This document shows, one piece after another, positions 6,461-48,470 of a stretch of 64,000 nucleotides of DNA. A program made the position numbers and the translations under genes. The DNA is taken from assembly GCF_003334335.1 (NCBI RefSeq), contig NZ_QOWQ01000020.1; one strand, 5' to 3'. Source of the DNA: Escherichia coli. Lineage in GTDB: Bacteria; Pseudomonadota; Gammaproteobacteria; Enterobacterales; Enterobacteriaceae. Under the pieces are notes generated by a model that worked only from the letters and a program-made list of their open reading frames with translations, ran no database searches and was not told the DNA's origin. Positions within the stretch are counted from its first letter, which is position 1; each line of letters starts with the position of its first letter.

Positions 6461-7633
<1,173 letters not shown>

Positions 7634-7639
7634 CCACTT

Positions 7640-7832
<193 letters not shown>

Positions 7833-46077: not shown

Positions 46078-47271
46078 ATGACGGAACAAGAAAAAACCTC
46101 CGCCGTGGTTGAAGAGACCAGGGAGGCCGTGGACACCACGTCACAACCTGTCGCAACAGAAAAAAAGAGTAAGAACAATACCGCATTGATTCTCAGCGCG
46201 GTGGCTATCGCTATTGCTCTGGCGGCGGGCATCGGTTTGTATGGCTGGGGTAAACAACAGGCCGTCAATCAGACCGCCACCAGCGATGCCCTGGCTAACC
46301 AACTGACGGCATTGCAAAAAGCCCAGGAGAGCCAAAAAGCCGAGCTGGAAGGCATTATTAAGCAACAAGCTGCACAACTTAAGCAGGCGAATCGTCAGCA
46401 AGAAACGCTGGCAAAACAGTTGGATGAAGTCCAACAAAAGGTCGCCACCATTTCCGGCAGCGATGCTAAAACCTGGCTGCTGGCTCAGGCCGATTTTCTG
46501 GTGAAACTCGCCGGACGGAAGCTGTGGAGCGATCAGGACGTCACGACCGCTGCAGCGTTGCTGAAAAGTGCAGACGCCAGCCTGGCGGATATGAATGACC
46601 CGAGTCTGATTACCGTTCGTCGGGCAATTACCGATGATATCGCCAGCCTTTCTGCAGTATCGCAGGTGGATTATGACGGCATCATCCTTAAGCTTAATCA
46701 GCTTTCAAATCAGGTAGATAACCTGCGTCTGGCCGATAATGACAGCGATGGTTCGCCGATGGATTCAGACGGTGAAGAGCTTTCCAGTTCCATCAGCGAA
46801 TGGCGTATCAATCTGCAAAAAAGCTGGCAGAACTTTATGGACAACTTCATTACGATTCGCCGTCGTGATGACACCGCCGTACCGCTGTTAGCGCCAAATC
46901 AGGATATCTATCTGCGCGAAAATATTCGCTCTCGCCTGCTGGTCGCAGCACAAGCTGTACCGCGTCACCAGGAAGAGACTTATCGCCAGGCGCTGGAGAA
47001 CGTCTCCACCTGGGTACGTGCTTACTACGATACTGATGATGCCACCACCAAAGCGTTCCTCGACGAGGTGGACCAGTTAAGCCAGCAAAATATCTCGATG
47101 GATCTTCCGGAAACCCTGCAAAGCCAGGCGATGCTGGAAAAACTGATGCAGACTCGCGTGCGTAACCTGCTGGCACAACCGGCAGCGGGGACAACGGAAG
47201 CTAAACCTGCACCTGCACCTGCACCTGCACCGCAAGCTGATACTCCGGCAGCCGCGCCGCAAGGAGAATAA
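46078..47271 (+). CDS. hemX: HemX (membrane-anchored protein with coiled coil)
   Basis: 397-aa ORF with N-terminal TM, Q/A-rich coiled coil and C-terminal Pro-Ala repeat. Confidence 0.88.
47206..47229 (+). repeat. tandem hexanucleotide repeat (CCTGCA)x4 inside hemX
   Basis: Four perfect CCTGCA units followed by CCGCAA, encoding [10 protein letters not shown] near the HemX C-terminus. Confidence 0.85.
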
Positions 47272-47273
47272 CC

Positions 47274-48470
47274 ATGCTAAAAGTGTTATTGCTCTTTGTG
47301 TTGCTGATTGCGGGGATCGTGGTTGGCCCGATGATTGCCGGCCATCAGGGTTATGTGCTGATCCAGACCGACAACTACAATATCGAAACCAGCGTCACGG
47401 GCCTGGCGATCATATTGATTCTGGCGATGGTAGTGCTGTTTGCCATTGAGTGGCTACTGCGGCGGATCTTCCGCACTGGCGCGCACACCCGTGGGTGGTT
47501 TGTCGGACGTAAGCGTCGCCGTGCACGTAAGCAGACCGAACAGGCGCTGCTGAAACTGGCGGAAGGCGATTATCAGCAAGTTGAAAAGCTGATGGCGAAA
47601 AATGCCGATCACGCGGAACAACCGGTGGTGAACTATCTACTGGCTGCCGAAGCCGCGCAACAACGTGGTGATGAAGCACGCGCCAACCAACATCTGGAAC
47701 GCGCAGCGGAGCTGGCCGGCAACGACACCATTCCGGTAGAAATCACCCGCGTACGTCTGCAACTGGCCCGTAATGAAAACCATGCTGCACGCCACGGCGT
47801 GGATAAGCTGCTGGAAGTTACGCCACGCCATCCGGAAGTATTACGTCTGGCGGAACAGGCGTATATCCGCACAGGTGCATGGAGTTCGCTGCTGGATATT
47901 ATCCCATCAATGGCGAAAGCCCATGTTGGTGATGAAGAACATCGTGCAATGCTGGAACAACAGGCATGGATTGGCCTGATGGATCAGGCGCGTGCCGATA
48001 ACGGTAGCGAAGGTTTGCGTAACTGGTGGAAAAACCAAAGCCGGAAAACGCGTCATCAGGTAGCGTTGCAGGTGGCAATGGCGGAACATCTTATTGAATG
48101 TGACGATCATGATACTGCCCAGCAAATTATCATCGATGGCCTGAAACGCCAGTACGACGATCGCCTACTGCTGCCGATTCCTCGACTGAAAACAAACAAT
48201 CCGGAACAGCTGGAAAAAGTGCTGCGCCAGCAAATCAAAAACGTCGGCGATCGCCCGCTGTTGTGGAGCACACTGGGCCAGTCACTGATGAAGCACGGAG
48301 AATGGCAGGAAGCATCGCTCGCCTTCCGCGCAGCGCTGAAACAACGTCCGGACGCCTACGATTACGCATGGCTTGCCGACGCGCTGGACAGACTGCACAA
48401 GCCGGAAGAAGCTGCAGCGATGCGTCGCGACGGTTTGATGTTAACGTTGCAGAATAACCCGCCACAGTAG
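47274..48470 (+). CDS. hemY: HemY (TPR-like inner membrane protein)
   Basis: 398-aa ORF 2 nt after the hemX stop. Confidence 0.9.
   Translation: MLKVLLLFVLLIAGIVVGPMIAGHQGYVLIQTDNYNIETSVTGLAIILILAMVVLFAIEWLLRRIFRTGAHTRGWFVGRKRRRARKQTEQALLKLAEGDYQQVEKLMAKNADHAEQPVVNYLLAAEAAQQRGDEARANQHLERAAELAGNDTIPVEITRVRLQLARNENHAARHGVDKLLEVTPRHPEVLRLAEQAYIRTGAWSSLLDIIPSMAKAHVGDEEHRAMLEQQAWIGLMDQARADNGSEGLRNWWKNQSRKTRHQVALQVAMAEHLIECDDHDTAQQIIIDGLKRQYDDRLLLPIPRLKTNNPEQLEKVLRQQIKNVGDRPLLWSTLGQSLMKHGEWQEASLAFRAALKQRPDAYDYAWLADALDRLHKPEEAAAMRRDGLMLTLQNNPPQ

Follow-up and report, generated by a model that had tools for sequence, protein, structure and literature searches.

A perfect hexanucleotide repeat near the 3′ end of Escherichia coli hemX is the typing locus CVN014 and ranges from 2 to 17 units in sampled genomes

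Results

The hemX–hemY region

The window analyzed here is a 64-kb stretch of DNA from Escherichia coli (contig NZ_QOWQ01000020.1 of assembly GCF_003334335.1), and its hemX gene is a plus-strand coding sequence at 46078–47271 that specifies a protein of 397 amino acids. The protein belongs to the NCBIfam family PRK10920 (NF008173), scoring 719 bits over residues 1–397 against a cut-off of 313, and the Pfam HemX domain (PF04375) covers residues 130–363 with an E-value of 3.7e-108. A single strong hydropathy peak predicts one transmembrane helix at about residues 36–58, with a KKSK cluster just before it. When the positive-inside rule is applied to this peak and its basic cluster, HemX is predicted to be a single-pass inner-membrane protein with a cytoplasmic N terminus and a periplasmic tail. 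The tail, residues 364–397, is rich in proline and alanine (of its 34 residues 12 are Ala and 8 are Pro, and Gln and Thr contribute 3 each) and contains the repeat that is the subject of this report.

RefSeq gives hemX the product name uroporphyrinogen-III C-methyltransferase in almost every E. coli genome. A Pfam scan of HemX found no methyltransferase domain of the tetrapyrrole methylase type seen in CysG and CobA, returning the HemX domain and weak matches of the coiled-coil or membrane type, and the MG1655 record carries the product name “PF04375 family protein HemX”. In view of these two observations, the enzyme name looks like a legacy annotation that has been carried forward. A 2008 review describes HemX as poorly characterized and the methylase role as merely “suggested” (PMC2704936), and a search of the PDB found no sequence relative of HemX among solved structures. 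HemX is not essential, the strain of the Keio collection that lacks the gene being reported as viable, with a somewhat reduced sensitivity to gentamicin (PMC12282077).

Immediately downstream on the same strand lies hemY (47274–48470; 398 amino acids; NCBIfam PRK10747, 830 bits). The junction between the two genes, at 47262–47276, is compact: an AGGAG Shine-Dalgarno sequence at 47262–47266 sits within the last hemX codons (Q-G-E), the hemX TAA stop occupies 47269–47271, and the hemY ATG begins at 47274. The junction is identical in alleles of 2 to 17 repeat units and stands at a fixed distance 3′ of the repeat, so that copy number leaves it unaffected. A scan of positions 46900–47500 found no promoter-like or terminator-like sites. 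Antisense coding across the array was also considered and set aside, since the only nearby minus-strand open reading frame of at least 100 amino acids (46850–47194) stops short of it.

A perfect CCTGCA array encodes a Pro-Ala tract

The array consists of four CCTGCA units with zero mismatches at 47206–47229 on the plus strand, bordered by AAA on the 5′ side and CCGCAAGCT on the 3′ side. Tandem Repeats Finder (TRF) called the slightly larger interval 47205–47231, with a period of 6, 4.5 copies, 100% matches and a score of 54. When the window was shuffled 100 times with its dinucleotides preserved, an 18-nt pattern of three such units never appeared, which places the array beyond chance expectation, and a regular-expression scan for perfect tandem repeats with a unit of 2–12 nt, at least three copies and a length of at least 18 nt returned this array as the only one in the 64 kb. 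Read in frame as CCT-GCA within hemX, the array encodes PAPAPAPAP at residues 377–385, leaving 12 residues between the Pro-Ala tract and the C terminus of the protein. The proline codon is CCT in all four repeat units, as against eight CCG, one CCA and one CCT in the rest of the gene.

A previous sequence-only reading of this DNA had reported four exact CCTGCA units at 47206–47229, had placed them in frame as a Pro-Ala tract near the HemX C terminus, and had regarded them as the sole candidate for repeat-length polymorphism in the window. The sequence, the TRF call and the regular-expression scan bear out this description. Its additional “degenerate fifth” unit holds only in part: extra repeat bases are indeed present after unit 4, but they amount to a partial copy, the leading CC of the Pro codon CCG (47230–47232), which is followed by CAA.

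Elsewhere in the window, TRF reported an imperfect repeat at 7633–7824 with a unit of 98 nt, a copy number of 1.9 and an identity of 85%. The consensus, which includes GCCGGATGCGGCGTAAACGCCTTATCCGGCCTAC, looks like that of E. coli intergenic repeats of the REP/BIME type.

The array is the MLVA locus CVN014

The hemX repeat is CVN014, one of the variable-number tandem repeat (VNTR) loci typed in the generic E. coli MLVA; it is a microsatellite of perfect (CCTGCA)n units situated within the 3′ end of hemX. Using the CVN014 primers and the formula repeats = (product size − 111)/6 given in Table 1 of PMC8143711, we found that both primers match the window exactly and at a unique site. The CVN014-R primer (GCAGCRGGGACAACGGAAGC) lies on the plus strand at 47182–47201, and the CVN014-F primer (TCCCCGCAATCAGCAAMACAAAGA) lies on the minus strand at 47293–47316, within the first codons of hemY. 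The two primers are convergent and flank the array, one on each side. The predicted amplicon, 47182–47316, measures 135 bp, and (135 − 111)/6 gives 4, the number of units read directly, so that both the 6-bp unit and the 111-bp non-repeat offset of the typing locus are found in the window. The primers of the remaining nine loci of the scheme gave no match in the window with up to two mismatches allowed. In primers, unit size, offset and high diversity alike, there is no difference at the DNA level between CVN014 and the array described here.

According to the papers that cite the schemes, CVN014 is one of the seven loci in the generic E. coli MLVA described by Lindstedt et al. (2007) and one of the ten in GECM-10 (Løbersli et al. 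2012) (PMC8143711, PMC3877011, PMC5217547, PMC3407997), and papers on the scheme describe it as the most variable locus of the assay. PCR typing recorded alleles of 2 to 11 inside ST131 (PMC3407997), and the 2–12 repeats reported in PMC5217547 are distributed much like the genome-based counts presented below. Allele numbering in some papers appears to be offset by roughly one unit from one laboratory to another, the ST10 complex being scored as 1 in PMC3407997 versus the two units read by sequence in K-12. The descriptions of CVN014 consulted in the MLVA papers name neither the gene nor the encoded peptide. Our literature searches pairing hemX with VNTR, MLVA or tandem repeat returned nothing relevant, the results including a Salmonella paper on a hemX point mutation.

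Copy number across complete E. coli genomes

A 281-nt query around the repeat showed that the locus is present in all 5,426 complete E. coli genomes, with matched spans that vary by 6-nt steps. The distribution of copy numbers was estimated by systematic (“spread”) sampling of these 5,426: two sets of 60 genomes were taken after ranking with different queries, and copies were calculated from span length. Over the resulting 120 rows the array ranged from 2 to 17 units with a mode of 5–6. Alleles of five and six units accounted for 20 and 19 rows, respectively, and seven, eight, nine and ten units for 13, 10, 6 and 6. On the short side there were 18 rows with two units, 4 with three and 8 with four, the last being the allele of the window, which is thus carried by about 7% of the sampled genomes. 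The long tail of the distribution comprised 1 row with 11 units, 6 with 12, 2 with 13, 1 each with 14 and 15, 2 with 16 and 1 with 17. These frequencies are those of a collection enriched for outbreak clones and for laboratory K-12 derivatives, the latter inflating the two-unit class.

The remaining 2 of the 120 rows represent one and the same irregular genome, strain P276M (NZ_CP044293.1), which ranked last in both samples. Its array reads as seven CCTGCA units followed by CCTGC-TGC-A, CCTGCA, CCA and four more units, the two irregularities being 3-nt insertions that keep the gene in frame. The same record marks hemY as “frameshifted; internal stop”, and because of this the irregular array is probably an assembly error.

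The arrays themselves were read in 15 genomes besides that of the window; P276M is one of these, and the other 14 had perfect (CCTGCA)n runs between identical borders, AAA...CCGCAAG. These 14 carried 2 (two genomes), 3, 5, 6, 7, 8, 9, 10, 12, 13, 15, 16 and 17 units. The hemX gene of MG1655 (b3803; 1182 nt, 393 amino acids) contains two units and is otherwise identical to the window over the stretch that was read, and the K-12-type genome AML003_ev03 likewise has two. The sequence-only reading had given a length of 393 amino acids for the K-12 protein and had remarked that the difference from 397 would fit two repeat units; the MG1655 record confirms the length, and its two units against the four of the window account for the difference. 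That reading had also proposed that the number of units would vary within the species, a proposal to be abandoned if every allele, including that of MG1655, had the same number, and counting units across E. coli instead gave 2 to 17.

Alleles longer than 16 units were sought with a synthetic 22-unit query, whose best 60 matches were led by O157:H7 genomes with 11–16 units. The longest allele among the matches listed, 17 units, came from the second of the two samples only.

Unit counts vary between chromosomes that share the same flanks

We compared the turnover of the array with that of the surrounding sequence using a 6-kb query centered on hemX, run against the complete genomes; all of the figures that follow refer to the matches listed. 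At least 40 genomes were identical to the window over the full 6 kb. Thirteen others gave a bit score of 11055, as a single 6-nt insertion in an otherwise perfect match would (five units), and two gave 11044, as would a single 6-nt deletion (three units). In a further two genomes the flanks were 100.0% identical and the spans were longer by 36 and 54 nt, corresponding to 10 and 13 units. Haplotypes of 6 kb with zero mismatches thus carry 3, 4, 5, 10 or 13 units. Because copy number varies on haplotypes that lack any substitution over 6 kb, the array changes faster than point substitutions accumulate. Alleles of 5, 7, 11, 12, 13, 15 and 16 units occur among complete genomes of O157:H7.

The same comparison revealed a structural variant of the region. 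In genomes Z1323CEC0012, BA92 and Z1323PEC0012 the 6-kb hemC-aslA stretch of the window is matched at 100% and extends over a span of 8,708 bp, an ISCro1 element (IS66 family) having been inserted; the window is without this insertion.

HemX tails in other genera

Every HemX homologue retrieved showed at least 82% identity, those of other genera showing 82–90% overall. The Pro/Ala/Thr/Gln-rich character of the tail is kept in these genera and the repeat is not. The HemX of Salmonella enterica has no PA run at the position of the tract. Among Citrobacter species, there is a single PA pair in C. koseri, against two in C. freundii and four in both C. gillenii and C. rodentium. The C. sedlakii proteins (394, 397 and 400 amino acids) differ at the same position of the tail by one, two or three copies of AAP, which suggests an independent VNTR with a 9-nt unit. 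The extreme C terminus, PAAAPQGE, is similar across Escherichia, Citrobacter and Salmonella; its likeness is no evidence of a motif, because the last codons double as the hemY ribosome-binding site and because overall identity is high.

Several unusual HemX sequences were encountered among the homologues. Salmonella enterica serovar Berta has a HemX of 413 amino acids, compared with the 389 usual for Salmonella, owing to an in-frame tandem duplication of 24 residues that spans the end of the transmembrane helix. An E. coli-type HemX of 485 amino acids from an ENA metagenome, present on a single contig, contains an internal duplication of 88 residues (HQEETYRQ…TEAKPA repeated), and its PA tract is broken by a threonine (PAPAPAPTPAPAPAP); this sequence is probably a misassembly of two strains. 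A Citrobacter-like HemX of 435 amino acids from JGI changes frame just past LLAQPAAAPA and continues for about 70 unrelated residues, in what looks like a frameshift in the low-complexity tail, whether real or a sequencing error.

Discussion

Taken as a whole, the observations are best explained by a known VNTR, CVN014, whose length most likely changes by slippage, in a tail of HemX that appears to tolerate such changes, and we put the probability of this explanation at roughly 90%. The polymorphism itself is already known: it is catalogued and has been in routine typing use since 2007, and the finding of the sequence-only reading, although right, is not new. What the present analysis adds is the hemX and Pro-Ala context of the locus, a genome-based range of 2–17 units, and the copy-number differences among chromosomes with identical 6-kb flanks.

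The perfection of the arrays, the restriction of length differences to whole units between fixed borders, and the uniform use of CCT together indicate that a unit was amplified and contracted, rather than that codons were selected singly. The most likely process is slipped-strand mispairing at replication, in which the nascent and template strands would pair again with an offset of one or more complete 6-nt units, and each such event would add or remove one or more Pro-Ala dipeptides. Unequal recombination would produce the same alleles. Weak hairpins formed by the self-complementary TGCA core of the unit may help to stabilize the slipped intermediates. For (CCTGCA)8 as single-stranded DNA, the predicted structure is an imperfect hairpin with a folding energy of −8.6 kcal/mol (z = −4.0 relative to shuffles). 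The TGCA palindrome in each unit is also predicted to permit register-shifted hairpins of (CCTGCA)n, which might add to the high slippage rate of the locus.

As the unit equals two codons, adding or removing units leaves hemX in frame and alters neither its stop codon nor the ribosome-binding site of hemY 30–40 nt downstream. Length variation is probably near-neutral, with little effect on function, because alleles span an eight-fold range of lengths in a terminal, low-complexity tail and because Salmonella does without the tract. Changes in tail length appear to be tolerated, in which case alleles would be expected to drift freely and quickly, and such free and fast drift would in turn make the locus useful for strain typing.

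Perfect, highly mutable repeats within genes naturally bring to mind contingency loci. In Haemophilus influenzae and Neisseria, such loci, for example those with tetranucleotide repeats, undergo slipped-strand mispairing at rates far above that of point mutation. The hemX array resembles them in being a perfect short tandem repeat, and its position about 45 nt upstream of the start of the next gene might be taken to suggest that changes in repeat number switch the expression of hemX or hemY on and off. The likeness ends with the unit. Contingency loci switch because their unit is not a multiple of three or because the repeat spaces a promoter, whereas the hemX unit is two codons long, the observed alleles are in frame, and there is no promoter-like site near the array (46900–47500). 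Across the 120 sampled rows, lengths differ by multiples of 6 nt with the single exception of P276M, which is still in frame, and the hemX stop and the hemY ribosome-binding site and start remain at a fixed distance downstream. Among the sampled alleles, then, no change in the repeat shifts the frame or alters the spacing of a promoter. Since every observed change is in frame, the repeat is not an on/off switch, and the fixed downstream distances together with the lack of promoter-like or terminator-like sites in the scanned interval give no support to an on/off or expression-tuning role; we assign such a role a negligible probability. The same is true of the suggestion that the length differences are miscalled repeats arising from assembly or sequencing. 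P276M, in which an irregular array coincides with a frameshifted hemY, does hint at an error-prone assembly. Against this, the same alleles recur in many independent complete genomes, the differences are exact multiples of the unit, an array of at most 102 nt lies well inside single reads, and PCR fragment sizing in several laboratories gives the same polymorphism at the locus. The recurrence of alleles, the whole-unit steps and the PCR sizing lead us to reject assembly artefact as the source of the polymorphism.

A further alternative is that the length of the tract matters to the protein. In other proteins, both envelope and multi-enzyme ones, Pro-Ala repeats are known to serve as extended spacers. 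Examples of Pro/Ala-rich segments in E. coli are the hinge of OmpA and the linkers between the domains of the pyruvate dehydrogenase E2 subunit, which connect two folded domains and do not vary in length within a species. The HemX tract shares with them an alternation of Pro and Ala that is expected to be extended and unstructured, and one could imagine a stiff spacer whose length sets the reach of the HemX C terminus (…PAAAPQGE) and is under lineage-specific selection. The similarity of PAAAPQGE in Escherichia, Citrobacter and Salmonella would fit this proposal, as would the recurrence of long alleles of 11–16 units in O157:H7 and O111:H8 genomes. Unlike the hinge and the E2 linkers, however, the tract lies in a terminal tail in which just 12 residues and no folded domain follow it, and it varies eight-fold in length between strains. 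The last three hemX codons overlap the hemY Shine-Dalgarno sequence, and at 87–90% overall identity eight common residues are no evidence of a motif, and Salmonella lacks the tract entirely. The occurrence of 3 to 13 units on identical 6-kb haplotypes, and of 5–16 units within O157:H7, fits drift and not an optimum for each lineage. We regard functional tuning of this kind as very unlikely. Non-neutrality in a broader sense, in which the tract would be a periplasmic spacer that tunes an interaction of HemX, or in which the expansions to 11–17 units in O157:H7, O111:H8 and some poultry strains would result from selection or from a lineage-specific rise in slippage, strikes us as very unlikely. 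If it were true, the marker would, besides typing strains, also report on the physiology of the envelope or of heme.

The hemX repeat can also be compared with other coding VNTRs used to type E. coli O157 and STEC (O157-3, O157-9, O157-17, O157-19, O157-25, O157-34, O157-37 and the EHC loci). Like these, it is a short-unit repeat that varies within a clone, and its 5 to 16 units in O157:H7 represent a comparable range. One of them, EHC-1 of the Japanese STEC MLVA system, has values of 5–12 in O157 clades (PMC10062581). Given the similarity of the O157 ranges (5–12 versus 5–16), EHC-1 and the hemX repeat may be the same locus.

The practical value of these results is small, and they open no fresh biological question. 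They do show that the diversity recorded by PCR is reproduced by in-silico MLVA of complete genomes, and the repeat explains why RefSeq holds many HemX accessions that differ in length alone, from 393 to 423 amino acids. A widely used marker, CVN014, is now tied to the C-terminal tail of HemX, and that tail is flagged as a segment whose length can go up or down with no evident cost, which would be useful for the design of tags or truncations in this poorly understood protein.
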